NCBI GenBank assembly: GCA_963709345.1
Contig: CAVPVX010000002.1
Coordinates: forward strand, 372,978-436,977
Length of the DNA: 64,000 nucleotides
Source: an uncultured Actinomycetes bacterium
GTDB lineage: Bacteria > Actinomycetota > Thermoleophilia > UBA2241
Direction: 5' to 3'
The position numbers and the translations under genes are program-made. The notes under the pieces were generated by a model that did not search any database, was not told the DNA's origin, and was given only the letters and a program-made list of their open reading frames with translations. This document shows positions 13,600-53,002 of this stretch, piece by piece (position 1 is the stretch's first letter; each line of letters starts with the position of its first letter).

Positions 13600-14265
13600 T
13601 CACCCGAGGCCGAAGAAGTCCCTCGTCTGCTCCGGCGCGACGATGGCGAGCAGCTCCGACGGGGTCGCCGCGATGCATGCGGCGCCGGCGGCGATGAGAG
13701 TCTCCGGCTCGTGCCAGCCCCACCCGACCCCGACAGGGGTCGCGCCGGCGGCCCGCGCCTCGCGCATGTCGCCGCCGGTGTCGCCGACGAACCAGTAAGT
13801 GTCCTGGCCGGGGAATCGCGCGACCAGGTCGCCGATCTTGGTCACTTTGCTCTGGGCGCTCTCGGCGCCCGCGACCTCCGCCACCCCGGTCACGCCGTGA
13901 CGACGCAGCCACCCGTCCACGACGGCGGTGGGACTCGACGTCACGATGACGACGGTGCGCTCGTCCCCGAGCTCCGCGATGACCTGCGGCAGCAGAGGGA
14001 ACGGCTTGAGCCAGCGGCGGGCCATCACGAGCGCGCCGCCCACGCGGCCCATGACGGCGGCGACGCGCGCCTCGGGCACCCCACGGGCGCGCATGGCCGC
14101 GTAGAAGTTGCCGTCCATCACCGCCAGGAGGTCGTCCAGAGTCGTGAAGCCGGGAACGCCCTCCGCGGCGCACGCCTGCACAAAGGCGTTGCCGAAGACG
14201 TCGAGCGAGTCGACGATCACACCATCGAAGTCGAACATCACGAGCTCTCGGCGATCGTGGTCCAC
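13600..14265 (-). CDS. HAD-superfamily hydrolase (phosphoglycolate phosphatase-like)
   Basis: MFDFDGVIVDS motif I, IVTSS motif II, VGDTGGDMREARAAG motif IV and GVGWG. Confidence 0.9.
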   Translation of the reverse strand: MDHDRRELVMFDFDGVIVDSLDVFGNAFVQACAAEGVPGFTTLDDLLAVMDGNFYAAMRARGVPEARVAAVMGRVGGALVMARRWLKPFPLLPQVIAELGDERTVVIVTSSPTAVVDGWLRRHGVTGVAEVAGAESAQSKVTKIGDLVARFPGQDTYWFVGDTGGDMREARAAGATPVGVGWGWHEPETLIAAGAACIAATPSELLAIVAPEQTRDFFGLG

Positions 14266-14295
14266 GGCCGTCCTTGCGTGCGGGGACGAAGTCGC

Positions 14296-14329
14296 AGGCC
14301 GGCCGGCCGCTCACGCGGCCGGCCGGCCT
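14296..14329 (-). terminator. Hairpin immediately after mtbB
   Basis: Perfect 15-bp stem aggccggccggccgc/gcggccggccggcct; the loop reads GUGA (GNRA) on the minus strand. Confidence 0.65.
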
Positions 14330-14339
14330 CCTCACAGAC

Positions 14340-15746
14340 TCAGTAGTGCAGTCCGGTCTTGTTCTTGAACTGCTCGACGCAGTTGATCTCGATGTCGAGC
14401 AGCTTGGCGATACGAGCCTTCGCCGCGATGCCCTTGGCAACGCCCGGCACACCCGTGATCGTCCCGATGTCGAGTTCTTCCCTGAGAAGCCGCATCGTGT
14501 GGGGGTCACTGAGGTCCAGTGGGGTCACGTGGAGCTTGTCGGCGACGTACTTCTTGGCTTCGTCGATCCTCATCTTCTTGCTGAGCTGCATACGAGCAAC
14601 GAGATCTCCCGCTGCCCGGATGCCGCCCATGGACGAGGCCAACAGATGGGCCATGTGCATGCCGGCGGGGTCACCAGTGCCCACCTACAACCCGTCGGCC
14701 TTGCCGATCTCGATCATGGCCGCACTGCAGCGGGTCACGACGTCGACCGCGGGGGTCTCGAACATCGGCACACCGCCGACGCCCATACCGACGTTCGGGT
14801 GGATCGGCACCTTGGCGATGTCGGTGCAAGCCTTGACGAAGACGAGCGCCTTGCCGAGGTTCCACGGCGTGGACTTCTTGGTGTTGGTGGTGCTGACCGG
14901 ACCGAAGATCGAGACGCCGGCCTCCTCGCACACCTGCAACTGCTGGTGCGGCCACATGCCGGCCAGCCGCTTCCCGTTGTACTCGATGGTGCCGTGGATA
15001 CCGGTCACCATCTCGGTCGACATGCCGATCTCGACCGGCAGCCCCGTCTCCTTGGCGACGTGCTCGGTGCTCTTGAGCACTGCGGCGAACTCACCGTCGC
15101 CGGTGGAGGCCACGGTGTCGTAGTCGATACCGTCGGCGCCCATCTCGACCATGCAGTCGCTCATCTCGATGCAGTCCTCGAGGCACTTGGCGCCGGCTGC
15201 CTCCTGCGTCTCCCGCGACTCCTTGATCTTGCCCTGCTGCATGAGGTCGTACGGGTTGTCGAACGGGCCGTCGCTCTTGAAGTATAGGCCCAGGTTCGGC
15301 ATGAACCCGTAGAGCAGCGGGAAGATCGTGGTCTCCATGAGGATCTCGACGTGGAGCATCTCAAGCTTCTTGAGGAAGCGCTGCGGCTTGACCGAGTAGT
15401 CGTTGTGCGAGACTTCCATCGAGTCGAAGCCGAGCATGGACTCGTAGAGCCGCACGCCGACCTCGCGGTTGACCGGAGCGACGACGCCGCTCGAAATCTG
15501 CGACGAGTTCAGCGCGTTGACGCAGCCGTCCTTGGTCATGACGACCTCGTTGCCGCGCTGCACGCCCCAGATGCGCGTCGGGGCGGCGAACACGTCCACG
15601 AGCCAGTCGATCTCGTTCTCGGTCAGAGGCGGAACCTTCGCCTTCTTGGCCGCGAACTCCGACCCGTCGATGAACTCCTGGCGGAGCTCGTCCATGGTGA
15701 ACTCGACGTTCGAGTTGTCACCCATTCTCGTCAGGATCTTTGCCAT
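14340..15746 (-). CDS. mtbB: Dimethylamine:corrinoid methyltransferase MtbB, pyrrolysine-containing (in-frame TAG at 14685-14687, residue 354 of 468)
   Basis: ORFs 14685..15746 and 14340..14684 are contiguous and in frame: [45 protein letters not shown]. This matches Methanosarcina MtbB VEIAGVDGI-Pyl-IGVGDPLGM..[10 protein letters not shown] (recalled). Other shared motifs: [47 protein letters not shown] and AKGIAAK. Confidence 0.93.
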
Positions 15747-15838
15747 CTATACGGCCTCCACTGTGTCGCTGTCAGAAGTCCCAGGCCGTCCCGGGGGGTC
15801 TGCCTATTCTGTCTGCTCTGCGTGTGCGTTTCGTGAGG

Positions 15839-15872
15839 GCGCCGGCGGCGGCTCTGCGGCCGCCGCCGGCGC
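15839..15872 (-). terminator. Hairpin between the permease and mtbB
   Basis: 14-bp stem gcgccggcggcggc-tctgcg-gccgccgccggcgc with no U-tract; it may be a stability element instead. Confidence 0.45.
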
Positions 15873-15906
15873 TGGTCTTGACGCCGCGAAGGCGGATCCC
15901 GTCGGC

Positions 15907-17658
15907 TTACTCGACCGGGATCTCCTTGGCGACAGCCTCAAGCGCCATACCCTGCTTCTTGCGGACCATCCACGCGATCAGCCAGATCACGACGCCGGCC
16001 AGGTAGAGGACGCCCATGAAGACGGCGGACTCCCACAGGTTGATGTAGTACACCCCGTCGGGATCCCAGATGAACATGAAGATGTTGAAGACCAGGAAGG
16101 CGCAGTAGAAGGCCGCGATGATGGCCATCCACGGGATGCCGGCGATACCCGACTTGGGCAGGGCGCTGTTCTCCCAGATGCCCCGAGCGCGCCACTTCAT
16201 GACCATGAAGGCGAGCCCGCTGAAGAGGAACATGATGATGATGCCGAATGTCGCATCGTAGGTGAAGAGCTTGACGATCGTGACCCCCCGCTCCTCCACG
16301 ACGGGAGTGTACGCGTAGAGCGCCGCCACGATGATCGACGGGATCGTCATGAGCAGCAGAGCGACCGTCGGCACGCCGCCGGAGGTCACCTTGGCCGCCC
16401 GCTCAGGCAGGATGCGGTCGAACGCGGAGGCGAAGATCATGCGCGTCGACGAGAGGAAGAGCGTGCCGAACCAGCCGAAGAGCAGGAGCGAGATGGCGGC
16501 GATGAGGATGACCTGGAACGCCGCGTTGGGCACGATCCAGGAGATCATCGCCGTCGGCGAGATGTAGTCGCCGCCGATGGGCGAGATGCCCCACCAGAAC
16601 GCCGCCATGGTACCCATGAAGGCTTGGTAACCGACCTTCCAGGTCATCAGCCCGAGGAAGGACAGGGCGATGATCGTCGGCACGAAGAGCCCGCCGAGCA
16701 TCTGGTAGATGTTCTTGCGGAAGTCCTTGGCCCCGCGGACCTCGCCGTACAGAGTCGCGCCCCAGTTCGGCCACGCCATCCAGAACAACATGAACGGGAT
16801 GATCGCCCAGGTGGCCCAGCTCAGGCCACCGCTGAACGTGGAGGTCGGCATGCCGGTACCCGCACCGATCGACTCGACGGCCTCGAACGCGCCGGCGTGG
16901 GTCTCGCCCTCGACGACGACCATGGCGCCCTCATCGTCGTAGACGAACAGGCCGGCCTCGTCCTGCTCGTACTTGGTCAGGTCGAGCAGCCCGACGTCGC
17001 CGCCGTAGTACTTCTCGGCGGCCTGGTTGAACTTCTCTTTGAAGGAGTCGCCGGAGGTCACCAGCAGCAGGATGCCGCAGATGACGACGCCGGCGAGCCC
17101 GATCCACATGGCCCACTTCTGGAAGTTGGCGTAGGCCTTCATGCCGACGGCCACCAGGATCGAGGCGATGGCGATGACGACCAGCGAGGCCACGAAGATG
17201 CCCGTCGCCGTGCCGAGCCAGTCGGCCGCCCCATTGAGGCCGAGGATGCGGAAGATCGGCTTGACTGTGGTCTGCACGCCCATGTCGGCGTAGATCGGCG
17301 TCCAGAGCCACAGGATGAACCACCAGCCCACCCCGGCGATCACGAAGCCGATCGAGCTGTGGAAGATGCGTGTGATCCACACGTAGTCGCCACCCGCGCG
17401 CGGCATCGCCGAGATCAGGCCCGCGTACACGATGATCTCGAGCACGATGAAGCAGGCGGTGATGACGATCGCCCAGAACAGGCTGCCGCCCGGGATGAAG
17501 GTGGCGTACGCGAACGACCAGATCGCGAGGAACAGGTTCACGGAGAAGAACGAATACCTGAACCCGTCCGTCGACGACCAGCCCTTGACAAGCCCGCTCG
17601 CCTTGCGGACGAACAGTGTCTGCTCGGCTGGTTTGTTCGCACCAGAGTCTGTCGCCAT
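15907..17658 (-). CDS. APC-family amino acid/amine permease
   Basis: LFVRKASGLVK N-terminus, AMPRAGGDYVWITR and RMIFASAFDRILP; about 12 TM segments. Confidence 0.9.
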   Translation of the reverse strand: MATDSGANKPAEQTLFVRKASGLVKGWSSTDGFRYSFFSVNLFLAIWSFAYATFIPGGSLFWAIVITACFIVLEIIVYAGLISAMPRAGGDYVWITRIFHSSIGFVIAGVGWWFILWLWTPIYADMGVQTTVKPIFRILGLNGAADWLGTATGIFVASLVVIAIASILVAVGMKAYANFQKWAMWIGLAGVVICGILLLVTSGDSFKEKFNQAAEKYYGGDVGLLDLTKYEQDEAGLFVYDDEGAMVVVEGETHAGAFEAVESIGAGTGMPTSTFSGGLSWATWAIIPFMLFWMAWPNWGATLYGEVRGAKDFRKNIYQMLGGLFVPTIIALSFLGLMTWKVGYQAFMGTMAAFWWGISPIGGDYISPTAMISWIVPNAAFQVILIAAISLLLFGWFGTLFLSSTRMIFASAFDRILPERAAKVTSGGVPTVALLLMTIPSIIVAALYAYTPVVEERGVTIVKLFTYDATFGIIIMFLFSGLAFMVMKWRARGIWENSALPKSGIAGIPWMAIIAAFYCAFLVFNIFMFIWDPDGVYYINLWESAVFMGVLYLAGVVIWLIAWMVRKKQGMALEAVAKEIPVE

Positions 17659-17738
17659 CGGCTATGTCCCCCTTGAGTCGCATCTGCGCGGCGTCGAACG
17701 CGCCGCCTTCCCATGGACTTCCACCTGCCCGGGCGCCC

Positions 17739-18686
17739 TCACCCGGAGGTCAAGCGGTACCGCTTGAGCTTCTTCTTGCCGTCGAGATCGACCACGACTC
17801 CCGCGACCATGCCCTCGACGTAGGAACTGCCGGGGTTGATGGCGAGCGTGCGACCGATGCGCACCGCGGCCCTGCTCTCGTGGATGTGGCCGTGCAGCGA
17901 GAGGATCGGCTGGACCTCCTCGATCACCTCCTTGACCGCCGTGGAACCGACGTGAGCCGAATCCTGACCCTGGACCGTCAGCGTCTCCCAGTCGATCTTG
18001 GGAGCTACGTCCAGTTGCGTGTCGTACGGCGGCGCATGCAGCCCGAGCACGAGGCGCTCGGGGTCCACCGTCGCCTGCTTGACGATGCCCATCAGACGCT
18101 CCTTGAGCTTGGGCTCATCCTCCTCGCGCGGGGTGTCCCACGGTGTGAGGTTGGTCCAGCCGCTGGAGGCCAGCTGGTACCCTCCCGGCAGGTCGAGGAC
18201 GTTACCCTCGCCGACCTGCATGGTCTTGGACCTCGCGAGGATCGCGTCGATGTCGTGGCGGTCGTCGTTGCCCGGGCACACGATGCACTGGAGGCCGGAG
18301 CCCTCGAGCCTCTCGTCGGCCCATCCCACCCAGCTCTCGATCGTCTTGCGCATCTGCTCGTGGAAGAGCTCCTCGAGCTTGTCCTCGTCGGTCGTGTACT
18401 CGTCGCGCTCCTCGGGCGTGAGGGCGACAGGGTAGTAGCCGTGGTCGCGGATCAGCCGCTCCGCCTGTGCGAGAGCGTCCGCCCCGGCGACCTCGTGGCT
18501 CAGGTCCTGCATGTGGTAGCGCCACTGCTCAGGGCCTGTCTGCACGATGGGGATGATGGCCTTGCCGGTCATGTCCCCGCCCAGGATCAGGACGTCGGCC
18601 TCGTAGTGCTTGGCCGAGTTGATGAACTTGCGCCAGCAGACCTCCGATCCATGGACGTCCGTGGCGAAGAAGATCCTTACCGTCAC
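17739..18686 (-). CDS. Calcineurin-like metallophosphoesterase (Icc-related)
   Basis: ATDVHGS, LGGDMTGK, PGNDD, HAPPYDT, SLHGHIHES and INPGS. Confidence 0.9.
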   Translation of the reverse strand: MTVRIFFATDVHGSEVCWRKFINSAKHYEADVLILGGDMTGKAIIPIVQTGPEQWRYHMQDLSHEVAGADALAQAERLIRDHGYYPVALTPEERDEYTTDEDKLEELFHEQMRKTIESWVGWADERLEGSGLQCIVCPGNDDRHDIDAILARSKTMQVGEGNVLDLPGGYQLASSGWTNLTPWDTPREEDEPKLKERLMGIVKQATVDPERLVLGLHAPPYDTQLDVAPKIDWETLTVQGQDSAHVGSTAVKEVIEEVQPILSLHGHIHESRAAVRIGRTLAINPGSSYVEGMVAGVVVDLDGKKKLKRYRLTSG

Positions 18687-18904
18687 GCCCTACCCCCTTT
18701 CGCCGCATACGCGGGTGTCGTGATGTACCGTACCCGACGGCCGGTCACGTGTGCGCGCGGCGCGCGTGTCACGCTTCGGCCTGCCGGTTCGCGTGGCCGC
18801 AGCCGCCGCGTCCGCCGCGCGTGGCGCGGCGGACGGTCGGCGGCGGGACGCTCCCGTGGCTCATGCAGCTCTGCCTTGTGACGCCTGCATGTGCGCGACT
18901 CGGA

Positions 18905-20287
18905 TCACGAGACGGGGACCTCCAGACCCATGGCGGCGAGCTCGGAGCGCACCTCGTCCATGGCCTTCTGGTAGTCGGCGTTCGCGATCTTCTTGGTCTT
19001 CATGTCGTAGACCTGCTGGAACGTCATGCCCTTGTCCGGGTCCTTGAGCTTGTCGCCGAACAGCGGGAACAGCTTCTGGGCGATGGGCTCGGCCTGGGCG
19101 CGCGTGAGCTTGGAGGCGGCCAGACCGATCTCCGCATGGAACTTGTGGTCGTCGGGGACGAGCGAGTCCGACTGGACGGCCATCGCCGGGTGCCCCGAAA
19201 AGACGTTTCCACCAGAAGTCACGACAGCGAGCATATAGCACGCCATTTCGTAATGGTACTGCTTCGTGCCCGAGCCCCCGCCGAGGTACGGCAGGTTGAC
19301 CATCGGGTAGCCCATGTTGCGACCGACCGCGGCGTTCGACATGGCGATCGCCCAGATGAGCGGCTTCGTCGACGAGAGGTGCAGCTTGCTGTGCAGCGGA
19401 GCGTTGTAGTGGTAGCTGCCACGGAAGATCAGGTTTCCCATGATCATGTACGCGGTCGCCGTCACGGCCACGCCCTCGGCGCCGCCCGCGTAGCCCGCGA
19501 AGAGGGGCGTCGAGGTGGAGCCGATGTTGGCGCTGATGCTGTTGTAGAAGGCGACCTTCTGCAGCGCCTCGTAGCCCACGACCATCTCGGAGAGGAAGTC
19601 GATGAGGAAGCCGTCGCTCCGGCGCAGGCCGAACTCGGGATAGCTGGCCGCGAACATCGAGGCCGGCTGGGAGGCCGCGGAGATGCCGTTGATGATCGGC
19701 AGGCCGGCGCGGCCGGAGCGGCGGATGCCCTCACGCGCGAGACGCACCGTCTTGCAGGCGGAGAGGATCTCCTGCGGCGAGCGCACACGCGAGTCCTTGC
19801 CGCGAAGGTGCAGGATCGAGGGCACGCTGACGGAGTCCACGATGTTGTAGGACGCCATCTTCTCGACGGTGTCGACATAGACCTGCTCGTCGGTCGTGTA
19901 GATGCCGCCGCCGACGTGCACCCACGGCCGGTCGTCGATCGTGTCGGGGCGGCGGCCGCGCATGATGTTGCGCTCGCGGCCCTCGCCGAACGTGGTCGCC
20001 TTGGGGCACTGCTCGCAGGCGAGCACGATCTCGTCACGCGTGAACTCCATCACGCGGTTCGTCTCAGGGCAGTAGGCGCCGGCCTCGGCGATGAGGTCGA
20101 CAGCTGCCTCGAAGACCGCATCGGTGAGCGTGTCGTCCGGGTTGATGATGGTCTCTTTGTCCCACTTCACCTTGTGCCGCGAGATGACCTCGCTGAGCTT
20201 GGGGACGTAGCGCTTCATGTAGTAGTCGGTCTCGGAGGTGAGCGGGCCGGTCTCGGCGCGGTCGAACACCTCGATAAGGTCGATCAT
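18905..20287 (-). CDS. MtmB-family (monomethylamine methyltransferase-like) corrinoid methyltransferase lacking pyrrolysine
   Basis: End-to-end resemblance to recalled MtmB: FDRAETG, GAYCPETNRVMEFTRDEI, LRGK..RSPQEIL, SGRAGLPII (MtmB AGRPGMGV-Pyl), PLFAGYAGG and GMTFQQVYDMKT; no internal stop. Confidence 0.88.
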   Translation of the reverse strand: MIDLIEVFDRAETGPLTSETDYYMKRYVPKLSEVISRHKVKWDKETIINPDDTLTDAVFEAAVDLIAEAGAYCPETNRVMEFTRDEIVLACEQCPKATTFGEGRERNIMRGRRPDTIDDRPWVHVGGGIYTTDEQVYVDTVEKMASYNIVDSVSVPSILHLRGKDSRVRSPQEILSACKTVRLAREGIRRSGRAGLPIINGISAASQPASMFAASYPEFGLRRSDGFLIDFLSEMVVGYEALQKVAFYNSISANIGSTSTPLFAGYAGGAEGVAVTATAYMIMGNLIFRGSYHYNAPLHSKLHLSSTKPLIWAIAMSNAAVGRNMGYPMVNLPYLGGGSGTKQYHYEMACYMLAVVTSGGNVFSGHPAMAVQSDSLVPDDHKFHAEIGLAASKLTRAQAEPIAQKLFPLFGDKLKDPDKGMTFQQVYDMKTKKIANADYQKAMDEVRSELAAMGLEVPVS

Positions 20288-20324
20288 GTCGTGCTCCTCG
20301 CTCTCGTCGGGGTCTGGCGCAGTC

Positions 20325-20972
20325 TCAGGAGACCAGCTTGGTGGACAGGGTCACGGCCTCGTACGCCGTCGCGGCCCAACCGTCGGCGCCGATGGTGTCG
20401 GCCCACTCCTTGGTGGTCGCGCCGCCGCCGATGATCACCTTGAAGTCATCACGCTTGCCCTGGTCCTTGAGCGCGTCGATCACGTCGCGCTGACCCACCA
20501 GGGTCGTCGTGAGCAGGGCCGACATGGCGATGATGTCGGCGTCGACCTCCTTGGCCTTGTCGACGAACTGGAACAGGTCGACGTCGATGCCGAGATCCCA
20601 CACCTCGAAACCCGAGGTCTCGTACAGGAGCTTGAGGATGTTCTTGCCGATGGAGTGGAGGTCACCCTTGACGGTGCCGAGAACGATCTTGCCCTTCTTC
20701 TCACCCTCGGCGCCGGCTTCCTTGATCTTGGGCTCGAGGATGACCATCGCCGACTGGAAGGCGAGGGCCGCCTGCATGAGTTCGGGGAGGAAGATGTCCT
20801 CGCACTCGAACTGCTCGCCGATCACGTTGAGGCCCGGCAGCAGCCCCTTGTCGATGACGGCCTTGGCCTCGACGCCGTCGGCGAGGGCCGCGTTGACGGC
20901 CGCGAGGACCTGATCCTCGTCCTGGTCGATGATCGACTGCTTCAGCTTGTCGAAGTGGTCTGCGTCCGCCAT
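20325..20972 (-). CDS. Methyltransferase cognate corrinoid (B12-binding) protein, MtbC/MttC-like
   Basis: Cap domain IFLPELMQAA, GTVKGDLHSIGKNI (DxHxxG), DLGIDV, MSALLTTT and IIGGG; AAGGGG RBS before ATG 20972. Confidence 0.95.
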   Translation of the reverse strand: MADADHFDKLKQSIIDQDEDQVLAAVNAALADGVEAKAVIDKGLLPGLNVIGEQFECEDIFLPELMQAALAFQSAMVILEPKIKEAGAEGEKKGKIVLGTVKGDLHSIGKNILKLLYETSGFEVWDLGIDVDLFQFVDKAKEVDADIIAMSALLTTTLVGQRDVIDALKDQGKRDDFKVIIGGGATTKEWADTIGADGWAATAYEAVTLSTKLVS

Positions 20973-21119
20973 GGAATGCACCCCTTGGTCCGATTGAACA
21001 TTGCCCGGCCGCGTTCCGGCGGCCGCGTGACTGGTCGGGACTTCGTCTCAGCTCTTCGTGTCAGTCCGTCCTTGGTAGAGCCTTCGGCCGCTCAGGCCGC
21101 TCACTAGCGTCTGCGCCGA

Positions 21120-22571
21120 TCAGTCCTCCAGCGGAGTCGCGTCGCCGGCCACGAGGCCGGCGAAGCGCTCTCTGATCTCCGCGTCGAGTACGGCGTCCCA
21201 GGCGGCGCCGTTGGGCTCCGCCAGGATGCGACGCGCCTCGGCGAGGGCGCGGTCGTTGATGACCGGCCGGCCCGCGTCCTCCCACTGCTGGCGCATATCG
21301 CGGTTGGCCAGCTTGGGCAGTACGGCGGTCGTCTTCATGCGCGCCTTGGTGTGCTTGCGGCCCATGTAGCTGCCACCGGGGCCGACGGCGGCGATCTCGT
21401 CGAGGGCGAGATTCTCCTCGCTGAACTCCAGGCCGCGATAGGCGCGCTTGTCCATGATCGCGATCTCGTTGTCGACGACCGCCTTGGCGAAGTCGAAGGC
21501 CATGAGCGAACTGAAGAGGCCGCCCATGTTGAGCAGGGTGGCGCCGGCCGCGACGCCGAGCACCGTGTTCATGCCGGTCTCGTAGCCCGCCTGGGCGTCG
21601 TTCGAGTGTGAGTTGGTGAGGCCGATGTACCCGCCCGAGGGCACCCCGTAGAACCGCGCCAGCTGAGCCTGCGCCGCGAGAAGCATGCCCGTCTCGATGG
21701 CACCCGGCGCATAGGCGCCGGTGCGCATGTCGGCGACCGTCGGCAGGCTCGCATAGATGATCGGCGTGCCCTCCTTGACCATCTGCTGGAACACGGTGAT
21801 GGCGAGGAACTCGGCGTTGCCGACCACGAGGGTGCCCATCAGCGTCATGGGCGAGGTGAGGCCGGCGTTCGGCACCACCGTCGTGTACACGGGCAGCCCC
21901 CGCTCCGTGAGCCACATGACCGCCTCGGTGGAATCGACGTCCATGGTGAGCGGGCTGACCATCGGGCAGTAGTGGTGGTTGATGATCGGCCGCTCGGCGT
22001 AGGCGTCCTTGCCGCCGGCGATGAGCTCACCAAGCTCGATGATCTGGCGCAGGTCGTCCATGTTCGGCGTGTTGCTGCGCACGGGCTTGAGGCAGTTCTT
22101 GAGGGCCGGGTAGAACCGGCTCAAGCTGAACTGCCCCTCGGGCGCGTCGTCGGCCAGGGTCGAGATGCTGAACACGTCGAACCCGGGCAACTCGTTGATG
22201 AGGTGGGCGATGTTGGCGATGTCCGTGGACGTCGCGCGACGCTCGACTCCCGTGACAGGGTCGACCACGTTGGGCGCCGACGAGCCGGTGACGACGATGG
22301 GGCCGTCATCGGGGATCGTGCGGTCGAACTGCGGGTCGCGGCCGCGGAACGTGAAGCTCGGCGGCGCCAGCTTGCGGTACTTCTCGACGACGTCGGCCGG
22401 CATGCGCACCAGGCCGGTATCGTCGTCCACCGTGCAGCCGTGCGTCTTGAACACCTGTCGTGCGGGAGCGAAGTGGGCAAGAATGCCCACCGTCTCGAGC
22501 ACCTCGAGTGAGGCCTCGTGCGTGCGCCGTACCTCGGCCTCAGTGAGCATCTCGACGTACTTCATGGTCAT
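21120..22571 (-). CDS. MttB-superfamily (trimethylamine methyltransferase-like) methyltransferase lacking pyrrolysine
   Basis: HEASLEVLETVG, VSPLTMD, AGLTSPMTLMG, ADMRTG, DAQAGYE and AVGPGGSY; the Pyl-equivalent position in YGVPSGGYIG-L-TNSH is Leu. ATG 22571 overlaps the kinase stop (ATGA). Confidence 0.92.
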   Translation of the reverse strand: MTMKYVEMLTEAEVRRTHEASLEVLETVGILAHFAPARQVFKTHGCTVDDDTGLVRMPADVVEKYRKLAPPSFTFRGRDPQFDRTIPDDGPIVVTGSSAPNVVDPVTGVERRATSTDIANIAHLINELPGFDVFSISTLADDAPEGQFSLSRFYPALKNCLKPVRSNTPNMDDLRQIIELGELIAGGKDAYAERPIINHHYCPMVSPLTMDVDSTEAVMWLTERGLPVYTTVVPNAGLTSPMTLMGTLVVGNAEFLAITVFQQMVKEGTPIIYASLPTVADMRTGAYAPGAIETGMLLAAQAQLARFYGVPSGGYIGLTNSHSNDAQAGYETGMNTVLGVAAGATLLNMGGLFSSLMAFDFAKAVVDNEIAIMDKRAYRGLEFSEENLALDEIAAVGPGGSYMGRKHTKARMKTTAVLPKLANRDMRQQWEDAGRPVINDRALAEARRILAEPNGAAWDAVLDAEIRERFAGLVAGDATPLED

Positions 22572-23785
22572 CCCCCCTCCCCCTCTGCGACCTCGAGTAC
22601 GGATGCGGGCGCCTTGACACGCCCGGCCATAGCGGCGAGATCGTCGAGGCGGGCCTCGATGAAGTCGACGAACGCCACGTTGTGCTCGAGGAAGTAGAGG
22701 TACTCGTCGTCGTCCGGATCGCGGTCGATGTAGTAGGCGACGATGTCCCAACTGACCACGTAGAGCGCGGCGATCGCCAGCATGCGGGGCAGCGCGGCGA
22801 ATTCGCCGTCGGTGAGCGGGCCGGGGGCCTCGGTGCGGGACGCCTCGTCCTGATAGGCCCTCAGGAAGATCTCCGCCTTGTCGAGTCGGAGCTCGCCGTC
22901 GTCCGCTTCCTTCCACGATGCGCAGAAGTAGACGATGCCGATGGCGATGTCGAAGACGCGGTAGTCGAGCTTGGCCCAGTCGAAGTCGAACAGACCGACG
23001 CCGTGCTCGTCACGCCACTTGAGGTTGCCGGGATGGTAGTCACAGAAGACGGGACAACGCGGCAGACCGTCGAGCTCGGGACCCAGCATAAGGCCGCGGT
23101 CGATCGCCGCGAGGATCCCCGGCAACTGTGAGAGGAAGTACTGGTCGTATTTGGTACCCTTCGTCCCCTCGGCATAGCCGTTGAACGTGGCGGACATGGC
23201 CGCGAGGTAGTCCATGATCGGCGGCTGTTCGCGGAACAACTCGCCGGGCTCGAAGTCATGGGCGGCCTGATGGAAGCGCGCCAGCAAGCGAGCAGCATCC
23301 TCGTACTCGGTGTCGGTGCAGCGGTTCTCGGTCCAGGTGTACTTGTCCTCGCCGGTCAGCATCTCGTACACGGCGAAGAAGCGCGGGACACGCTCGGCGC
23401 CGAGAAGCTCCTCGCGCGTGACCAGCGTGTCGCCCCCTCTGGTCTCGTAGACGCATGCGGGGAGCTCGAAGCCCTTGCCCCTGATGTGACGGACGAGCGC
23501 GTGCTCGTAGCGGATCTCGCGCTCGACCGTGCCGTACTTGTACTTGCGCACGAAGTTCCGGCGCTCCCCGTCGCCGTCCCTCGTGACGACGGCGAAGCTC
23601 AGGTTCTCGAAGCCGCCGAAGATCTGTTCGACCCGGAGGACCTCTCCAAGGTCGTAGTCTGTCGCGACCACCTCGGCCAGCTGGCCGCTGAGGAACTCGA
23701 CCTGGAGCGCGTCGCGAAGCTCGCCGGCGTCACTCGCAAGCCGAACGGCGACCTCGAAGAGCTCGTTCACTCGATCTACGTCCAC
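22568..23785 (-). CDS. Phosphotransferase, APH / type II homoserine kinase / choline kinase-like fold
   Basis: FGGFENLSF glycine loop, FVRKYK, IRYEH, LARFHQA, CDYHPGNL catalytic loop and FDFDW. Confidence 0.88.
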   Translation of the reverse strand: MDVDRVNELFEVAVRLASDAGELRDALQVEFLSGQLAEVVATDYDLGEVLRVEQIFGGFENLSFAVVTRDGDGERRNFVRKYKYGTVEREIRYEHALVRHIRGKGFELPACVYETRGGDTLVTREELLGAERVPRFFAVYEMLTGEDKYTWTENRCTDTEYEDAARLLARFHQAAHDFEPGELFREQPPIMDYLAAMSATFNGYAEGTKGTKYDQYFLSQLPGILAAIDRGLMLGPELDGLPRCPVFCDYHPGNLKWRDEHGVGLFDFDWAKLDYRVFDIAIGIVYFCASWKEADDGELRLDKAEIFLRAYQDEASRTEAPGPLTDGEFAALPRMLAIAALYVVSWDIVAYYIDRDPDDDEYLYFLEHNVAFVDFIEARLDDLAAMAGRVKAPASVLEVAEGEGG

Positions 23786-23897
23786 ACGGCCTCGGTTCCG
23801 TCGCAGCGGCGCGCATCGCGCGCCGGTCTCGCAGGCTCACACGCCTGCCCGTCGCGGTGGCGGAAAACCGCGGTTCGCAGCCCCCCGCAGCCGGTCA

Positions 23898-24692
23898 TCA
23901 CACGACGATGCACTGCAATCCTCGCCGCGTGATCTCGTCTCGCACACCCCTGTCGACGCTGTCGTCGACCATCACTATGTCAACCCTGTCGAAGCCGCAG
24001 ATGGCGACATCGGCGACGACGCCGATCTTGGAGGCGTCGGCCAGGGCCACGACGTCGCCCCGCGTCTGCGTGATCATGGCACGCTCCACGCCGGCCATGC
24101 TGACGGTCGGCGTCGTGAGACCTTCGGTAAGGTCGAATCCGTCGACGCCGAGGAGCATCCTGCTCGCGCGGAAGCGGCTGATGTGCTCCAGAGCGAGCGG
24201 TCCGCTGACCGCGTTCGAGCGCGGCCGGTACAGGCCACCGACGAGGATGACCTCGAGGCGCAGCCCTTTGGCTTCCTGGATGGCTCCGACATTGTGGGTG
24301 ACGACGCGAGCTTCGAGCGCCGGGTCGACGTGGCTGAGGACCTTGGCGGCGGTGGTGCCCGAACTGAGGAAGACCGTCTCTCCGGGCCGGATGAGGGCGG
24401 CGGCGCTCTCGGCGATCCGCCGCTTCTCCTCGGTGTGCGTCGTCGCTCGCTCCACGTAGAGCGACTCCTCCACGAGGCGGCGCTTGAGAATAGCGCCGCC
24501 GTGCGTGCGCACGAGGACTCCCTCCGCCTCAAGCCGCTCGAGGTCTCTGCGGATGGTCATCCCAGACACACCAAGATCCTCGCTCAGCGAAGACACGCGG
24601 ACCGCCTGCCGCTCCTCGACCATGTCGATGATGCGCGCGCGACGCTCGGCGGGGATCATCTCATGGACTTCCGGGACATCTGGCGACGCCAC
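23898..24692 (-). CDS. DeoR/GlpR-family transcriptional regulator (copy 1, 264 aa)
   Basis: VSGMTIRRDLERL HTH, RTHGGA, EKRRIA, VFLSSGTT and LADASKIG; start chosen by collinearity with the paralog at 52208. Confidence 0.93.
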   Translation of the reverse strand: MASPDVPEVHEMIPAERRARIIDMVEERQAVRVSSLSEDLGVSGMTIRRDLERLEAEGVLVRTHGGAILKRRLVEESLYVERATTHTEEKRRIAESAAALIRPGETVFLSSGTTAAKVLSHVDPALEARVVTHNVGAIQEAKGLRLEVILVGGLYRPRSNAVSGPLALEHISRFRASRMLLGVDGFDLTEGLTTPTVSMAGVERAMITQTRGDVVALADASKIGVVADVAICGFDRVDIVMVDDSVDRGVRDEITRRGLQCIVV

Positions 24693-24723
24693 AGCCTCCC
24701 CCACTACTCGCGTCCTGCGGGCC

Positions 24724-24779
24724 GACAAGACCGAACAAAGTCGAACACATCATAGGCTCGCAGCCGCGAGTGTCAAGCA
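24724..24779 (-). promoter_or_regulatory. Sigma-70-type promoter with 10-bp-phased repeats (candidate DeoR operator)
   Basis: TTGACA (24776-24771), 16 nt, TATGAT (24754-24749), then g-tgttcgactt-tgttcggtct-tgtcg; closely matches 52122-52177 outside the spacer. Confidence 0.75.
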
Positions 24780-47345: not shown

Positions 47346-47563
47346 GCTGTGTGGCCCGTCGGAACAAGACACCACAAGTGCGGTAGACAGCCCGGCGGGA
47401 GTGAACTACCATGCGCATGATATGAAAGGAGCGAATCTGTGCATTTGAGTGATTGCTTGTTCACTTCTCATATGGTGCGCGTCTCAGAAGGCCGCTCGCC
47501 TCGCTCGTCAAGGGCCTTGGGCCCCACAGTCACATCCGTAGAATCAATCAGCTAGGGGGAGAC

Positions 47564-48775
47564 ATGCAGGAACGCAATCTCTTGGAAGAACTGGTCGACG
47601 TCAGCCCGGGCATGGAGATCTGGTGGGACTCGTCGCCGGTCATCTTCGGCAACTGGTGCCAGAAGCTGCTCGCCAAGGCGACCGACGGCGACAAGGAGAT
47701 CCTCAAGCGCCAGTTCGCGCGCATGTACAACGCCGAGGACCCGATGGGCCAGCTCTTCCGCGGCGTCACCACCAACCCCCCGCTGTCGCTGGCGGCGTTC
47801 AAGGACGACCCCGCCCGCTGGGAAAAGGTCGCCGAGAAGATCCTCGCCGAGAACAAGGACCTCGACACCGAGGGTCTCTTCTGGGTCCTCTACAAAGAGG
47901 TCGTGAAGCAGGGCTCCGACATGTTCCTCCCCCTCTTCGAGGCGTCGGGCTACAAGGAAGGCTTCCTCTCCGGTCAGGTCGACCCGCGCAGCGCCTTCGA
48001 CAAGGACGCGATGATGACCCAGGCGCTGGAGATCCACGCCGTCAATCCCAACGTGATGGTCAAAGTGCCCGGCACCGCGGTCGGCTACGAGGTCATCGAG
48101 GAGCTCACGTCGCGCGGTATCGCCACCAACAACACGCTCACCTTCATCCTCCCGCAGCTCATGGACTGCGCGAAGTCCGTCAATCGCGGTCTTGAGAAGG
48201 CGAAGGCCAACGGCGTCGACCTCTCCAAGTGGCGCTCGGTGATCACGCACATGGAAGCTCGCTACGGCGACCTCGGCGGCCTGCGCGAAGCCGGCGCCGA
48301 GAAGGGCATCGAGGTCACCGAGGGTGACGTCCGCATCGCCGAGCTGGCGATCTTCAAGAAGGCCTACCATCTGCTCCAGGACGGGGACTACCACAGCAAG
48401 ATGCTCTCCTGCTCGCTGCGCCTCGGCCCGACCGTCGACGGCAAGCAGCAGATCTGGCACCTCGAGGAGAAGGCCGGCGCCGGCGTCGTCGTCACCTGCC
48501 CGCCGTCGCTCATCGACGAGCTCATCAACTTCCCGAACCCCGGTGACATCACGTTCAAGGCCGGCCAGATCGACGTCGATCCGCCCAAGGACGTCATGGA
48601 CAAGCTCATGCGCATCCCGTACTTCGAGCGCGCCTACGCGGAAGACGGCTACACCAGGGCCGAGTACGACACGCACCCCGCACTGGTGAAGACCCACGCG
48701 GCTTTCTCCAAGGCCACCAACGAGATGGTCGCCTTCGCGGACGGCTGCCTCAAGCAGGGTCAATGCAAGGCCTGA
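47564..48775 (+). CDS. Divergent transaldolase-family protein
   Basis: IWWDS, RGVTTNPPL, GFLSGQVDP, NVMVKVPGT (Schiff-base Lys) and GIATNNTL; AGGGGGAG RBS before ATG 47564. Confidence 0.85.
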   Translation: MQERNLLEELVDVSPGMEIWWDSSPVIFGNWCQKLLAKATDGDKEILKRQFARMYNAEDPMGQLFRGVTTNPPLSLAAFKDDPARWEKVAEKILAENKDLDTEGLFWVLYKEVVKQGSDMFLPLFEASGYKEGFLSGQVDPRSAFDKDAMMTQALEIHAVNPNVMVKVPGTAVGYEVIEELTSRGIATNNTLTFILPQLMDCAKSVNRGLEKAKANGVDLSKWRSVITHMEARYGDLGGLREAGAEKGIEVTEGDVRIAELAIFKKAYHLLQDGDYHSKMLSCSLRLGPTVDGKQQIWHLEEKAGAGVVVTCPPSLIDELINFPNPGDITFKAGQIDVDPPKDVMDKLMRIPYFERAYAEDGYTRAEYDTHPALVKTHAAFSKATNEMVAFADGCLKQGQCKA

Positions 48776-48820: not shown

Positions 48821-49903
48821 ATGACCGACATCAAGGACAAGATCAACCCCTACGTGTGGGCGGCTCCGGAGTACAACACCGGCATCCTCGACAAGGCGTG
48901 GGCGCAGCCCGAGATGGGCCGCATGATGCTGAACGAGAACCCGATGCCGCCGTCGGATGCCGTCGTCAAGGCGATCACCGACATGGCCGAGAAGGGCAAC
49001 CGCTATCCGGACCGCGCCTATCGCCTGCGCGAGAAGCTCGGCGCACTCCACGGCGTGGCGGCGGAGAACATCGCTCTCGCCAACGGTTCGTCCGAGACCA
49101 TCGACGCGATGATGCGCGTCTTCCTGCAGCCGGGCGACGAGTTCCTCTGCTCCAACCCGACCTTCGAGATGTTCCCGTCGCGCGCCGGCCTGTGCAACGC
49201 CAAGACCGTGCAGATCCCCCTGCGTGACGAGGACCTGCAGTACGACGTCGACGCCATGCTCGCGGCCGTCAACGAGAAGACCAAGCTCATCCTCATCATC
49301 AACCCGAACAACCCGACGGGCATCTTCATCGACGACGCGGACCTCACCAGGTTCTGCGAGCTCGGCATCCCGCTCTGCATCGACGAGGCGTACCTCGACT
49401 ACCACCCGCAGGTCGAGGCCAAGGTCGACTTCGTCAACAAGTACCCCCACGTCTTCCTGTCGCACACGTTTTCGAAGGCGTTCGGGCTCGCCGGCATCCG
49501 CTTCGGTTACGTCGTCGGTCACCCGACCCTCATCGAAGCCTTCAACCTGATGTTCCTGCCGTGGAACCTCAGTCTGATGGCGATCGCCGCGGCCGAGGCC
49601 ATCCTGGACACGGGCGAGGTCAAGGACAAGGTCGTCTACAACAACGAGTGGATGGACAAGTTCTCCGCGGCGCTCGAGGCCAAGGGCCTCAAGGCGTACG
49701 AGGCACACGGCAACTACATGCTGGTCGATGCCTCCGTGAGCGGCAAGACCAGCGCCGAGATCGTCCAGGCCGCCGCCGAGATGCAGAAGATCTTCCTCAA
49801 GACGATCAAGCCGATCAACGGCAAGGAAGGCTACTTCCGCGTCACCCCGGGCACGCCCGAGGAGTGCGCGCGCTTCATGGCGTTCATCGCGCAGTACTTC
49901 TGA
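48821..49903 (+). CDS. PLP-dependent aminotransferase class I/II (HisC/CobD-like)
   Basis: LNENP, NRYPD, NGSSE, NPNNPTG, IDEAY and HTFSKAFGLAGIRFGY. Confidence 0.92.
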   Translation: MTDIKDKINPYVWAAPEYNTGILDKAWAQPEMGRMMLNENPMPPSDAVVKAITDMAEKGNRYPDRAYRLREKLGALHGVAAENIALANGSSETIDAMMRVFLQPGDEFLCSNPTFEMFPSRAGLCNAKTVQIPLRDEDLQYDVDAMLAAVNEKTKLILIINPNNPTGIFIDDADLTRFCELGIPLCIDEAYLDYHPQVEAKVDFVNKYPHVFLSHTFSKAFGLAGIRFGYVVGHPTLIEAFNLMFLPWNLSLMAIAAAEAILDTGEVKDKVVYNNEWMDKFSAALEAKGLKAYEAHGNYMLVDASVSGKTSAEIVQAAAEMQKIFLKTIKPINGKEGYFRVTPGTPEECARFMAFIAQYF

Positions 49904-50008: not shown

Positions 50009-52018
50009 GTGAGCCCAGTGGCGAGCGCACAGACCATCGAAGACCGCTGCATCGACACCATCCGCTTTCTCGCCGTCGACGGCGTCCAGAAGGCCAAGTC
50101 CGGACACCCCGGCATGCCGATGGGCGCGGCGGCCATCGCCCACACGCTGTTCACGCGGCACCTCCGCTACGACGCCGCCGACCCGGCGTGGCCGGACCGC
50201 GACCGCTTCGTCCTCTCGGCGGGGCACGCCAGCATGCTGCTCTACTCCATGCTCCACCTGACGGGCTACGACCTCAGCCTCGACGACCTCAAGGCGTTCC
50301 GCCAGTGGGGCAGCAAGACGCCGGGGCACCCCGAGTACAAGCACACCGCCGGCGTCGAGACCACCACCGGCCCTCTCGGCCAGGGCGTCGCCAACGGCGT
50401 GGGCATGGCTCTCGCCGAGCGGTTCCTCGCCGCCACCTTCGGCTCCGACGTCGTCGACCACTACACCTACGTGCTCGCCGGTGACGGCTGCATGATGGAA
50501 GGCATCAGCAGCGAGGCCGCCTCGTTCGCCGGCCACCAGCAGCTCGGCAAGCTGGTCCTCCTCTACGACGACAACCACATCACCATCGACGGCGCCACCG
50601 ACCTCGCGTTCACCGAAGACGTGCCCAAGCGCTTCGAGGCGTACGGCTGGCACGTGCAGAAGGTCGCCGACGGCAACGACGTCGACGCCATCGACGCGGC
50701 CATCACGGCGGCGAAGGCCGAGACCGGCAAGCCGTCGCTGATCGCCGTGCGCACGCACATCGGCTGCGGCTCGCCCAACAAGCAGGACAAGTCCGCCGCC
50801 CACGGCGCCCCGCTCGGCGTCGACGAGGTCAAGCTCACCAAGGAAGCCTGTTCGTGGCCGCTCGACCCCGAGTTCTTCGTCGCCGACGACGTCAGGGCGT
50901 TCTACTCGGAGGCCGCCGGCAAGGCCGCCGCCGCGCACGCCGAGTGGACGAAGAAGTACGAGGCGTGGCGCGCGGCCGACGCCGCTCGCGCCGGCGCCTG
51001 GGACGACGCCTGGTCGGGCACGCTCCCCGAGGGCTGGGACGCAGACCTGCCCGTGTTCACGACCGACGACACCGTGGCGACCCGCGCCGCGTCGGGCAAG
51101 GTGATCAACGCCCTGGCGCCGCACCTCCCCACCCTCATGGGCGGCTCGGCCGACCTCGCTCCCTCGAACAACACCCTGATCAAGGACGCGCCCGACCAGC
51201 AGGCGGCGACGCCCGAGGGTCGCAACGTGCGCTGGGGCGTGCGCGAGCTCGCCATGGCCGGCATGGGCAACGGCCTCGCGCTGCATGGCGGCGTGCGACC
51301 CTACGTGGCGACGTTCTTCGTGTTCGTCGACTACATGCGGCCGTCCATGCGCCTCGCCTCCCTCATGGGACTCCCGGTCACGTACGTGCTCACGCACGAC
51401 AGCATCGGCGTGGGCGAAGACGGACCGACGCATCAGCCCATCGAGCACCTCGCGATCCTGCGCGCGACGCCCAACTGGATCGACCTGCGTCCCGCCGACG
51501 CCAACGAGACGGTCGAGGCCTGGAAGATCGCCCTCCAGACGACCGACGCCCCGGTCGGCCTCATGCTCACGCGCCAGAACCTGCCGACGATCGACCGCAA
51601 GAAGTACGCGGCGGCGAGTGGCATCGCCCGCGGCGCCTACGTGCTCGCCGATGCGGCGGGCGGCGGAGCGCCGGACGTGATCCTCATCGCCAGCGGCAGC
51701 GAGGTCGCCCCGGCGCTTGAGGCGCACGAGCGGCTCGTCGCCGACGGCGTGCGCTCGCGCCTCGTCAACATGGCGTCCATGCAGCTGTTCGCGAAGCAGG
51801 ACGCCGACTACCGTGAGAGCGTCCTGCCGCCCGCATGCAGCAGCCGGCTCGCGATCGAGGCGGGAGTCACCTTCGGCTGGGACCGCTGGGTGGGAGACGG
51901 CGGCCAGATCATCGGACTCGACCACTACGGCGCCTCCGCTCCCGCCGGCACGTTGTTCAAAGAGTGGGGCTTCACCGCCGACAACGTGTACGCGCGAGCC
52001 AAGGCTTTGGCCCGCTGA
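50009..52018 (+). CDS. tkt: Transketolase
   Basis: [39 protein letters not shown] and [16 protein letters not shown]. Confidence 0.97.
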
Positions 52019-52177: not shown

Positions 52178-52207
52178 GCACGCTGAGCGATGATGCCGGA
52201 GGGGCCG

Positions 52208-53002
52208 ATGTCTGCCGAGGAAACGCCAGATTCCCGAGAGATGATCCCGGCCGAGCGGCGCACGCGCATCGTCGAACTGCTCGAGGAACGGCGCGCAGTG
52301 CGCGTCTCCCTGCTCAGCGAAGCGCTCGGCGTCTCCGAGATGACGATCCGGCGCGACCTGGAACAACTCGAGCGTGCCGGCCTCCTCTCGCGCATGCACG
52401 GCGGCGCGATCCTCAAGCGGCGGATCCTCGAGGAACCCCGTTACCTGAACAACGTGCGCGCGCACTCCGAGGAGAAGCACCGCATCGCCAAGGCGGCCGC
52501 GGCGACGATCGCTGCCGGGGAGACCGTCTTCCTCAGCTCGGGGACCACGGCCGCCATGGTGCTGAACCACGCGGACCCGCAGATCCACGCGCGCATCGTG
52601 ACCCACAACGTCGGCGCCATCTCGACCGCGCAGCAGTCGTCGCTGGACATCGTCCTTCTCGGCGGGTCTTACCGGTCGCGCTCCAACGCGCTCGAGGGAG
52701 CTCTCGCGATCGAGGCCGTGACCATGTTCCACGCCTCACGGTTCATCCTCGGGGCCGACGGGGTCACGCTCGAAGAGGGCGTGACGACGCCGAGCATCGG
52801 CCTCGCCGGCATCGAACGCGCCATGATCCGCCAGACCCGCGGCGAGGTCGTCGTACTCGCCGACAGCAGCAAGTTCGGCGTCGTCGGTGACGTCGCCATC
52901 TGCACCCTCGACAAGGTCGACGCCATCATCGTCGACAACGCTGTGGGTGAGGACGTCAGAGCGGAGATCGAGCGTCTCGGGCTGCGCCAGGTCGTGGTCT
53001 GA
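52208..53002 (+). CDS. DeoR/GlpR-family transcriptional regulator (copy 2, 264 aa)
   Basis: VSEMTIRRDL, HGGAILKRR, VFLSSGTTAA and LADSSKFG; GGAGG RBS; collinear with 23898..24692. Confidence 0.93.
   Translation: MSAEETPDSREMIPAERRTRIVELLEERRAVRVSLLSEALGVSEMTIRRDLEQLERAGLLSRMHGGAILKRRILEEPRYLNNVRAHSEEKHRIAKAAAATIAAGETVFLSSGTTAAMVLNHADPQIHARIVTHNVGAISTAQQSSLDIVLLGGSYRSRSNALEGALAIEAVTMFHASRFILGADGVTLEEGVTTPSIGLAGIERAMIRQTRGEVVVLADSSKFGVVGDVAICTLDKVDAIIVDNAVGEDVRAEIERLGLRQVVV

Follow-up and report, generated by a model that had tools for sequence, protein, structure and literature searches.

The 64,000-nucleotide stretch of DNA analyzed here (the window) lies on contig CAVPVX010000002.1 of assembly GCA_963709345.1, from an uncultured actinobacterium of the class Thermoleophilia. 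It carries a nine-gene operon in which methyltransferases of the MttB, MtmB and MtbB families, the last containing pyrrolysine (Pyl), are grouped around a single corrinoid protein, together with a kinase, a metallophosphoesterase (MPE), a HAD-family hydrolase, a permease and a DeoR-type regulator. The cluster is a real, conserved operon; its arrangement recurs in 57 related loci and is more than chance. With a probability of about 55%, the operon is read here as part of a pathway for the breakdown of choline or a closely related N-methylated ethanolamine, namely the half that removes the methyl groups. Two published systems bear on this reading. In Eubacterium limosum, MthK phosphorylates choline, the non-Pyl enzyme MthB methylates the corrinoid protein MthC only with phosphocholine, and MthA passes the methyl group to tetrahydrofolate (THF) (Jiang et al. 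2025, PMC12155760). The non-Pyl MtmB homologue MtqB, encoded 3' of a corrinoid gene, demethylates tetramethylammonium and choline (Kashyap et al. 2026, PMC13044021). Given these precedents, the kinase with its non-Pyl MttB and the non-Pyl MtmB both point to choline.

Lists of open reading frames are crowded in the window owing to its G+C content of about 70%, and genes were picked by third-position G+C and Pfam calls. This bore out all nine co-oriented genes of an initial annotation made from the sequence alone and placed them on the minus strand, running from 24728 to 13600. The first gene encodes a DeoR/GlpR-family regulator (23898..24728; Pfam HTH_DeoR 62 bits, DeoRC 130 bits), whose best NCBIfam matches are GlpR, AgaR and SrlR, each below its cut-off. 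The second encodes K1, an APH-fold small-molecule kinase of 405 amino acids (22568..23785; PF01636, 85 bits) proposed to be an MthK-like choline (amino-alcohol) kinase, and the third a non-Pyl MttB homologue (21120..22571; PF06253, 284 bits), putatively an MthB-like phospho-quaternary-amine:corrinoid methyltransferase. The corrinoid protein (20325..20981; B12-binding and B12-binding_2), the sole carrier in the cluster, is followed after a gap of 37 bp by a non-Pyl MtmB homologue (18905..20287; PF05369, 215 bits), which is MtqB-like by family and gene order. Further downstream lie the binuclear MPE (17739..18686), assigned from its motif set, a divergent APC-superfamily permease proposed for amine uptake (15907..17658; AA_permease_2, 48 bits), the Pyl-containing MtbB (14340..15746; PF09505, 400 bits over the first 353 residues) and the HAD-family phosphatase-like hydrolase (13600..14265; HAD_2).

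The stop codon of K1 overlaps the start codon of MttB as ATGA, as had been noted initially, with GGAGG just 5'; the other intergenic gaps are 37-218 bp. In a terminator scan, the number of sites was not above that in shuffled sequences, and no convincing minus-strand terminator was seen between operon genes. A sigma-70-like promoter match (24749..24776, minus strand; TTGACA, 16 nt, TATGAT; 11 of 12 positions) lies just 5' of deoR; it is a consensus match only, two such sites occurring in the region where 1.0 is expected. Contigs 85-99% alike from four RNA libraries (ice, sediment, wetland) span 14251-23000, with the flanks hardly covered, and some of them individually run across the junction of the corrinoid protein with MtmB or that of the MPE with APC. 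These contigs come from relatives with small word shares, carry no strand, start or level, may contain DNA and cannot prove a single transcript, their uncovered parts being uninformative; they are only a hint that the operon genes are transcribed in nature.

The upstream part of the operon resembles the Mth system of E. limosum, in that an APH-type kinase gene adjoins those of a non-Pyl MttB and a corrinoid protein. Homologues of mthK and mthB co-localise in Clostridia, Negativicutes and deltaproteobacteria (PMC12155760), and this taxonomic range is spanned by the named members of the K1 family (Sporomusa, Thermacetogenium, Ca. Adiutrix, Clostridia/Firmicutes, Deltaproteobacteria, Syntrophobacteraceae, Oligoflexia and Planctomycetota). 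The five Mth components, namely kinase, EamA transporter, MttB, corrinoid protein and pterin-type methyl-THF:corrinoid methyltransferase (MT2), recur in K1-family clusters of other taxa. By this analogy, the cluster likely works as MthK/MthB do. The systems also differ: the window cluster adds the MtmB-family protein, the Pyl-containing MtbB, the MPE and the HAD protein; it has an APC permease instead of EamA, and its MT2 candidate is encoded elsewhere in the genome; its kinase and MttB genes are co-directional and overlapping, whereas those of E. limosum are divergent; and its host is an actinobacterium in which no acetyl-CoA synthase was found. Furthermore, E. limosum strips one methyl group only and excretes dimethylaminoethanol, and the HAD protein, which follows K1-family clusters, has no mention in the main text of Jiang et al. 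(PMC12155760).

The K1 family is compact, with 695 representatives at E≤0.001 and 115 at 1e-30, and its catalytic D..N and DFD residues are invariant. A mass of about 48 kDa was computed for MthK (WP_052237066.1) from the kcat and Vmax in the paper (PMC12155760), a size similar to that of K1 with its 405 residues. Most related loci encode a second kinase of the PF01633 choline/ethanolamine type (CK), which is absent from the window cluster; K1 and CK have no significant similarity by BLASTP.

In the MttB homologue, a leucine aligns with Pyl334 of the solved trimethylamine methyltransferase 7XCL, and in the MtmB homologue an isoleucine aligns with Pyl202 of MtmB 1L2Q; both are therefore truly non-Pyl enzymes, in agreement with the initial annotation, as is the Pyl assignment of MtbB. 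At the glycine-betaine-binding positions of MtgB, the MttB homologue has Ser for Y97, Gly for R312, Asn for H348 and Leu for F356. The motif VPSGGYIGLTN and residues S98, G314, N349 and L357 are common to 30 of 30 kinase-linked MttB orthologues, and the clade has invariant, clade-specific basic residues (R113, R153, K159, R166, H200, H201 and K364). We conjecture that these could hold a phosphate at another place. The kinase-linked MttB likely belongs to the MthB clade.

The MtmB homologue resembles MtqB/MtqC of Methanococcoides methylutens Q3c in that a non-Pyl MtmB is encoded directly 3' of a corrinoid gene, and its likeness is strengthened by the carrier: the window corrinoid protein is 51-62% identical to those beside MtmB-like genes elsewhere and 34-43% identical to those beside kinase-linked MttB genes. 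This closer resemblance to the MtmB side suggests that a kinase-MttB module was combined with a corrinoid-MtmB module and that the carrier and MT2 of the former were lost. The MtgC, MtbC and pyl_corrinoid models all match the carrier below their cut-offs, and only generic MtmB clusters were returned for the MtmB homologue from the Protein Atlas. Unlike MtqB/MtqC, to which it is likened by family and gene order, the window pair has a bacterial host, with THF rather than coenzyme M as acceptor, and the MtmB gene shares an operon with a kinase-coupled MttB and a Pyl-containing MtbB.

The MtbB gene has TAG at codon 354 (14685-14687), followed by 114 open codons up to TGA, and every orthologue that covers the site (30 of 30) has TAG there as well. 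The protein is 56% identical to its nearest paralogue in the genome. As substrate, either dimethylamine or a substituted amine (secondary or tertiary) is conceivable. The genome encodes tRNA-Pyl(CUA) (pylT), PylS (318 bits), a PylB-like radical-SAM protein, PylC and PylD. A tRNA-Sec gene for selenocysteine is present as well (G000:C1:120215-120312), and since both tRNAs are encoded the genome decodes UGA as selenocysteine and UAG as Pyl. In Methanosarcina, MttB, MtbB and MtmB are all Pyl-dependent and each has its own corrinoid protein. The window system is similar in the in-frame UAG of MtbB and the full Pyl machinery of its genome; it differs in that one of its three enzymes uses Pyl and one corrinoid protein is available for all three. 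No corrinoid gene adjoins mtbB, and the only one of the cluster lies about 4.6 kb upstream.

A pattern scan with the MtmB homologue gave the 57 related loci, with MtmB orthologues 86-98% identical, and the cluster proteins were compared across all of them. On the upstream side, at 40 loci with at least 5.6 kb of sequence, the corrinoid protein, MttB and DeoR were each found at 40 of 40 and K1 at 36. On the downstream side, at 35 loci with at least 7.8 kb, CK and the APC permease were found at 30 each, the MPE at 28 (30 counting a paralogue), MtbB at 26 and the HAD protein at 18, this last count being lowered by insertions that push the gene past the flank. All nine window genes were present at 16 of the 29 loci with both flanks, and K1 or CK at 29 of 29; kinases are thus kept beside the methyltransferases, as the initial proposal implied, the phosphoesterases less strictly so. 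Median identities are 90, 86 and 92% for MttB, the corrinoid protein and MtmB, and 61, 74 and 71% for the kinase, the regulator and the HAD protein. Some of the related loci lack MtbB or have it inverted or at another place; in L055, L066, L083 and L169 it is inverted yet still linked. In a class-wide sample, MtmB orthologues of at least 81% identity occurred in five genera of one family; 10 of 11 other families gave no match (E≤1e-10) to the MtmB query, and the eleventh had only distant homologues of about 24-30% identity. The conservation counts represent persistence through rearrangement and not independent events.

Beyond these relatives, a metagenome scan with an alignment of distant K1-family members kept 80 loci, 10 Thermoleophilia-like and 70 not. 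At least 3 kb downstream of the kinase was available in 34 of the 70, and within 5 kb of the kinase an MttB 54-67% identical to that of the window was found in 21, an MtmB-like gene in 2 and neither in 11. One such cluster (L092) has the order eutBCA, regulator, corrinoid protein, kinase, MttB, corrinoid protein, pterin-type MT2 and HAD, and another (L110) kinase, EamA transporter, MttB, corrinoid protein, MT2 and HAD. Of 17 contigs with a flank of 6 kb or more, 12 have a HAD homologue (33-37% identity) after the kinase-linked MttB cluster. MtmB-like genes lie near K1-family kinases in L134, with DeoR, MT2 and a dimethylglycine-dehydrogenase-like oxidase, and in L126 and L156, with ABC transporters. 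On proteobacteria-like contigs, a divergent MttB-like protein of about 430 amino acids (profile positions about 220-433, 83-87 bits) is encoded directly beside K1-family kinases (L134:3741-7978; L146:124-2489; L131, L132, L157 and L142), sometimes with GcvT or a dimethylglycine-dehydrogenase-like oxidase; it may represent a corrinoid-protein-free variant of the same pathway.

A second locus of the window (47453-53002, plus strand) is judged, from its linkage and co-occurrence, to belong with the operon system. It encodes a divergent transaldolase/fructose-6-phosphate aldolase-family (TAL-like) protein (47453..48775; best NCBIfam transaldolase model NF002881, 99 bits against a 367-bit cut-off), a HisC-like aminotransferase (48821..49903; TIGR01141, 254 bits against a cut-off of 276.55 bits), a transketolase (50009..52018; TIGR00232, 864 bits) and a DeoR paralogue 60.6% identical to the operon DeoR (52190..53002). 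The TAL-like protein keeps the Schiff-base lysine (VKVPGT), but the Glu of the IEVD motif is exchanged for Gln, and both residues recur in 9 orthologous loci; the Gln is presumably the fructose-6-phosphate aldolase pattern. A canonical transaldolase is encoded elsewhere in the genome, as is a separate HisC paralogue on contig C2 (29% identical). HisC-family enzymes act on amines that adjoin a phosphate ester, and phosphoethanolamine is the simplest such compound; the HisC-like protein is proposed to be an amino-alcohol-phosphate aminotransferase.

In two relatives, L054 and L169, the methyltransferase genes and CK are succeeded, on one strand, by those for the TAL-like protein, the HisC-like protein and transketolase, and in L170, L069, L041, L056 and L057 such genes lie beside the cluster; the transketolase gene is 3' of the HisC-like gene in L054, L169 and L170. 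Among 79 genomes of the family, collated by hand, the TAL-like gene occurs in 51 of the 56 with an MtmB orthologue versus 3 of the 23 without. MtmB and TAL-like genes lie on one contig in 31 genomes, with a gap of 1-33 kb in 27. The linkage extends to the K1-family contigs of other taxa: 5 of the 11 without a close MttB (L125, L130, L131, L132 and L157) carry a TAL-like gene of 67-70% identity. In the four of these that were annotated, the order is kinase, TAL-like protein and alanine dehydrogenase, with a GntR regulator first in L125, L131 and L132, the divergent MttB-like gene after the kinase in L131, L132 and L157, and a HisC-like gene (61-62% identity) last in L125 and L157. A histone-deacetylase-family amidohydrolase gene (53069-54085, minus strand) adjoins the DeoR paralogue; in two relatives, it lies beside K1 and DeoR with a BetI-type TetR (L025:11944-12960; L028:11725-12777), and an N-acetylated amine of this pathway may be the substrate of its product.

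The 3.1-Mb genome, which is 98% complete, is rich in related methyltransferases. It has 64 MttB-family matches, about ten with an in-frame TAG, ten MtbB paralogues, all with TAG and including that of the window, and two MtmB homologues, neither of which has a TAG in the part covered. The second MtmB, 34% identical to the first, is non-Pyl and paired with a second corrinoid protein at a contig end (L003, G000:C7:762000-777446, 13600-15446), behind TetR- and AsnC-type regulators. At the end of the window (60152-61768, 62055-62846 and up to 63993), there is one intact MttB gene and one split in two frames, the adjacent pieces covering profile positions 14-245 and 244-498; the split may be a frameshift or a pseudogene.

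Neither an MT2 nor a RamA-type activase is encoded within the 64-kb window, as the initial annotation had stated, and both were found elsewhere in the genome, the MT2 as a candidate. One RACo/RamA-type activase is encoded on contig C9, beside three MttB genes, and one MT2 candidate on contig C3 (NF005719, 214 bits; cut-off 259 bits). Another strong Pterin_bind match on C3 was rejected as MT2; it is FolP, inside a row of folate-synthesis genes. MTHFR, FolD and FTHFS are also encoded elsewhere in the genome. An MtrH-type MT2 (PF02007) and acetyl-CoA synthase (PF03598) were not found; in the absence of the latter, the organism is not considered an acetogen and probably oxidises methyl-THF.

The MPE has the motifs DxH, GD, GNDD, H and GHxH, invariant in 21 orthologues and paralogues. 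The best fold matches of its model (pLDDT 89) are the uncharacterised proteins aq_1956 (2YVT) and TT1561 (1UF3); the structure and fold searches returned only uncharacterised structural-genomics proteins and generic diesterases or nucleases, with no clue to the substrate. Both a phospho-amine monoesterase and a diesterase, for example for glycerophosphocholine, are possible. In three modules of the genome, an MPE is paired with an APC permease. One module (L001, G000:C11:108000-126000, 6217-11714) comprises DeoR, CK, a 269-residue protein and MPE and APC paralogues, and another (L002, G000:C3:4000-22000, 4317-12050) a 268-residue protein, MPE, APC, AsnC and APC; both are without methyltransferases, and the latter adjoins a putrescine aminotransferase gene (611 bits; cut-off 612). 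The 269-residue protein (L059:12374-13183 and homologues) has no Pfam or NCBIfam match. By eye, its G...DID pattern recalls polymerase-beta-type nucleotidyltransferases, and it shares 30% identity with the C-terminal region of a Fic-domain protein (L001:12334-14409); a homologue adjoins K1 in a low-GC metagenome contig (L156:677-1456).

The following pathway is proposed for choline or a close N-methylated ethanolamine; its substrates and the order of its steps are what we infer. The APC permease would import the amine and K1 would form a phosphate ester, most relatives also having CK as a second kinase of the choline/ethanolamine type. In the manner of MthB with phosphocholine, the kinase-coupled non-Pyl MttB would then demethylate the phospho-quaternary amine a first time and load the methyl group onto the corrinoid protein in its Co(I) state. 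The MtqB-like MtmB and the Pyl-containing MtbB would take methyl groups from the same or following intermediates, all on the same carrier; choline itself may be the substrate of MtmB, and N-methylethanolamines (secondary or tertiary) or dimethylamine that of MtbB. The carrier would be unloaded by a methyl-THF-forming methyltransferase and re-reduced by a RamA-type activase, both encoded elsewhere, and oxidation of the methyl-THF is proposed because acetyl-CoA synthase was not found. The HAD protein and the MPE would hydrolyse phospho-intermediates. More speculatively, the end product phosphoethanolamine might be transaminated by the HisC-like enzyme to glycolaldehyde phosphate, which the TAL-like enzyme and transketolase might join to sugar phosphates; such an entry of the carbon skeleton into sugar phosphates could explain why DeoR-type, sugar-phosphate-sensing regulators stand at both loci. 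Import, phosphorylation and stepwise demethylation on one carrier had been suggested in the initial annotation and are upheld in outline by the synteny and the two papers; nothing points to the amino-sugar that was then considered as an alternative substrate.

Several observations weigh against this proposal. Among proteins of solved structure, K1 is nearest to a homoserine kinase and not to a choline kinase: the family profile, which was needed since phmmer with the single K1 sequence gave no match among solved structures, scores 58 bits with 2PPQ and 28 bits with the choline kinase 3C5I. The equivalent of MtgB R312 is said to be conserved in MthB (PMC13080624), whereas the window MttB and all 29 kinase-linked relatives have Gly314 there; the kinase-linked clade may thus differ from that of MthB or hold the anionic group elsewhere. 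Orthology of K1 and MttB to MthK and MthB, likely as far as the MthB clade is concerned, rests on gene neighbourhood and on the taxonomic range of the named relatives; protein searches, an exhaustive representative search and cluster look-ups of 30 proteins gave no Eubacterium name and no MthK/MthB accession. MtbB scores like an ordinary dimethylamine methyltransferase, reaching 308 bits with TIGR02368 on its first 353 residues alone, where the whole-protein cut-off is 369 bits. We know of no precedent for a non-Pyl enzyme acting on a tertiary amine, so that three enzymes map poorly onto three successive steps. To encode a kinase together with two phosphoesterases seems futile if they do not act on different intermediates. 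The second locus lies 27 kb from the operon in this genome, and conversion of phosphoethanolamine to glycolaldehyde phosphate is no described reaction, a literature search having given only an origin-of-life paper. Finally, the related genomes are kin, and their synteny and co-occurrence counts are therefore not independent.

A bolder form of the choline pathway, which we regard as rather improbable, is a complete, phosphate-conserving anaerobic route with a single phosphorylation. All three methyl groups would be removed from phospho-intermediates on one carrier by the three enzymes, each of another superfamily, the Pyl enzyme having been recruited to an N-methyl-phosphoethanolamine instead of dimethylamine. 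Phosphoethanolamine would then pass, by transamination with the HisC-like enzyme, through glycolaldehyde phosphate and, with the TAL-like enzyme (as an aldolase) and transketolase, to pentose phosphate, sensed by the DeoR regulators.

It is likewise rather improbable that the operon is a mosaic of three independent entry enzymes that share a carrier and a regulator and pass no intermediate on. Each would then have a methylated amine of its own: one a phosphorylated quaternary amine, one another quaternary amine, for example choline or tetramethylammonium, and one dimethylamine as such. The 64 MttB-family matches and ten Pyl-MtbB paralogues of the genome indicate that such modules are shuffled often, MtbB does not keep its place at all loci (found at 26 of 35) and scores near the dimethylamine methyltransferase model, and MtqB uses unphosphorylated choline directly (PMC13044021). 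However, the trio of MttB, corrinoid protein and MtmB is never broken up (40 of 40) and has median identities far above those of the flanking genes, and MtbB stays linked even where it is inverted. That one carbon skeleton is followed to its end is also suggested by the presence of kinases and by the fusion of HisC-like and TAL-like genes to the cluster in L054 and L169.

The same enzymatic logic might apply to another substrate, which is rather unlikely: homoserine betaine (a betaine-lipid head group), an N-methylated serinol or aminopropanol, or a phosphodiester such as glycerophosphocholine, cleaved by the MPE after uptake. Not only the best solved relatives of K1 are type II homoserine kinases, but also its best NCBIfam relatives; the MttB pocket differs from MtgB at all four glycine-betaine-binding positions, with smaller residues; GlpR, the best NCBIfam match of the regulator, is a family of glycerol-3-phosphate sensors; and the MPE has a diesterase-type motif set and is always paired with a permease. 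Set against this, the CK of most relatives and of the paralogous module matches the choline/ethanolamine kinase family PF01633, one kinase-MttB cluster (L092) lies beside ethanolamine ammonia-lyase genes, and the component list matches the published choline cluster down to the EamA transporter of L110. MthB itself was inactive on glycerophosphocholine (PMC12155760).

In the initial annotation, the lack of an MT2 and an activase within the window had also prompted the proposal that methyl groups are moved from dimethylamine onto a phosphorylated acceptor. The system would then work in synthesis, with MtbB taking up the methyl groups and the corrinoid protein handing them on, for example to turn phosphoethanolamine into phosphocholine. 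Corrinoid methyl transfers are reversible in principle, but this proposal is highly improbable and loses its basis because the activase and the MT2 candidate encoded elsewhere in the genome, which also has MTHFR, FolD and FTHFS, can serve all clusters. In other taxa, an MT2 that forms methyl-THF is part of the kinase-linked MttB clusters themselves, and the TAL-like, HisC-like and transketolase genes fused in relatives fit breakdown and not synthesis. The published homologous system is likewise catabolic (PMC12155760).

Among the other genes of the window, polyphosphate kinase 2 is encoded about 2 kb past the HAD gene (10475-11473, minus strand) and likewise in a relative (L017:16215-16979); it may be a conserved neighbour of the kinase-rich operon. 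A tRNA-Gly(CCC) gene lies at 34510-34590 (plus strand) and a tmRNA gene, with the tag DESNLALAA, at 43697-44051 (minus strand).

A literature search that combined Thermoleophilia or Actinobacteria with pyrrolysine, mttB and mtbB, and choline or dimethylethanolamine with corrinoid, gave no description of the operon. The view in the initial annotation that no system of this make-up is described therefore holds for the full set, and not for its parts, as the kinase, MttB and corrinoid protein correspond to Mth and the non-Pyl MtmB to MtqB. Expression of Pyl-encoding mttB and mtbB by Actinobacteriota genomes has been reported from thawing permafrost peat, in which choline and glycine betaine were detected (Ellenbogen et al. 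2023, PMC10805028); the passages of that paper concerned with these genes give no account of an operon, of kinases or of a second locus. New are the combination of three methyltransferase families, one with Pyl, around a single corrinoid protein, the presence of such a system in Actinomycetota, and a second locus, which some relatives have fused to the operon and which is elsewhere linked to this kinase family.

Choline and methylated amines are abundant in soils and peat and control the supply of trimethylamine-type substrates to methanogens. The motif VPSGGYIGLTN is a usable marker of kinase-linked MttB for the annotation of metagenomes. If the proposed pathway is true, the only described B12-dependent choline route, by which a gut acetogen takes off a single methyl group, would be extended to complete demethylation, and this in an actinobacterial lineage of soil and peat that is widespread and transcriptionally active. 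One carrier would serve three enzyme superfamilies, and functions would be given to a non-Pyl MtmB and to one of the many bacterial Pyl-MtbB paralogues. The linked HisC-like and TAL-like genes offer a testable, undescribed fate for phosphoethanolamine, the chemistry of which would be new if true.

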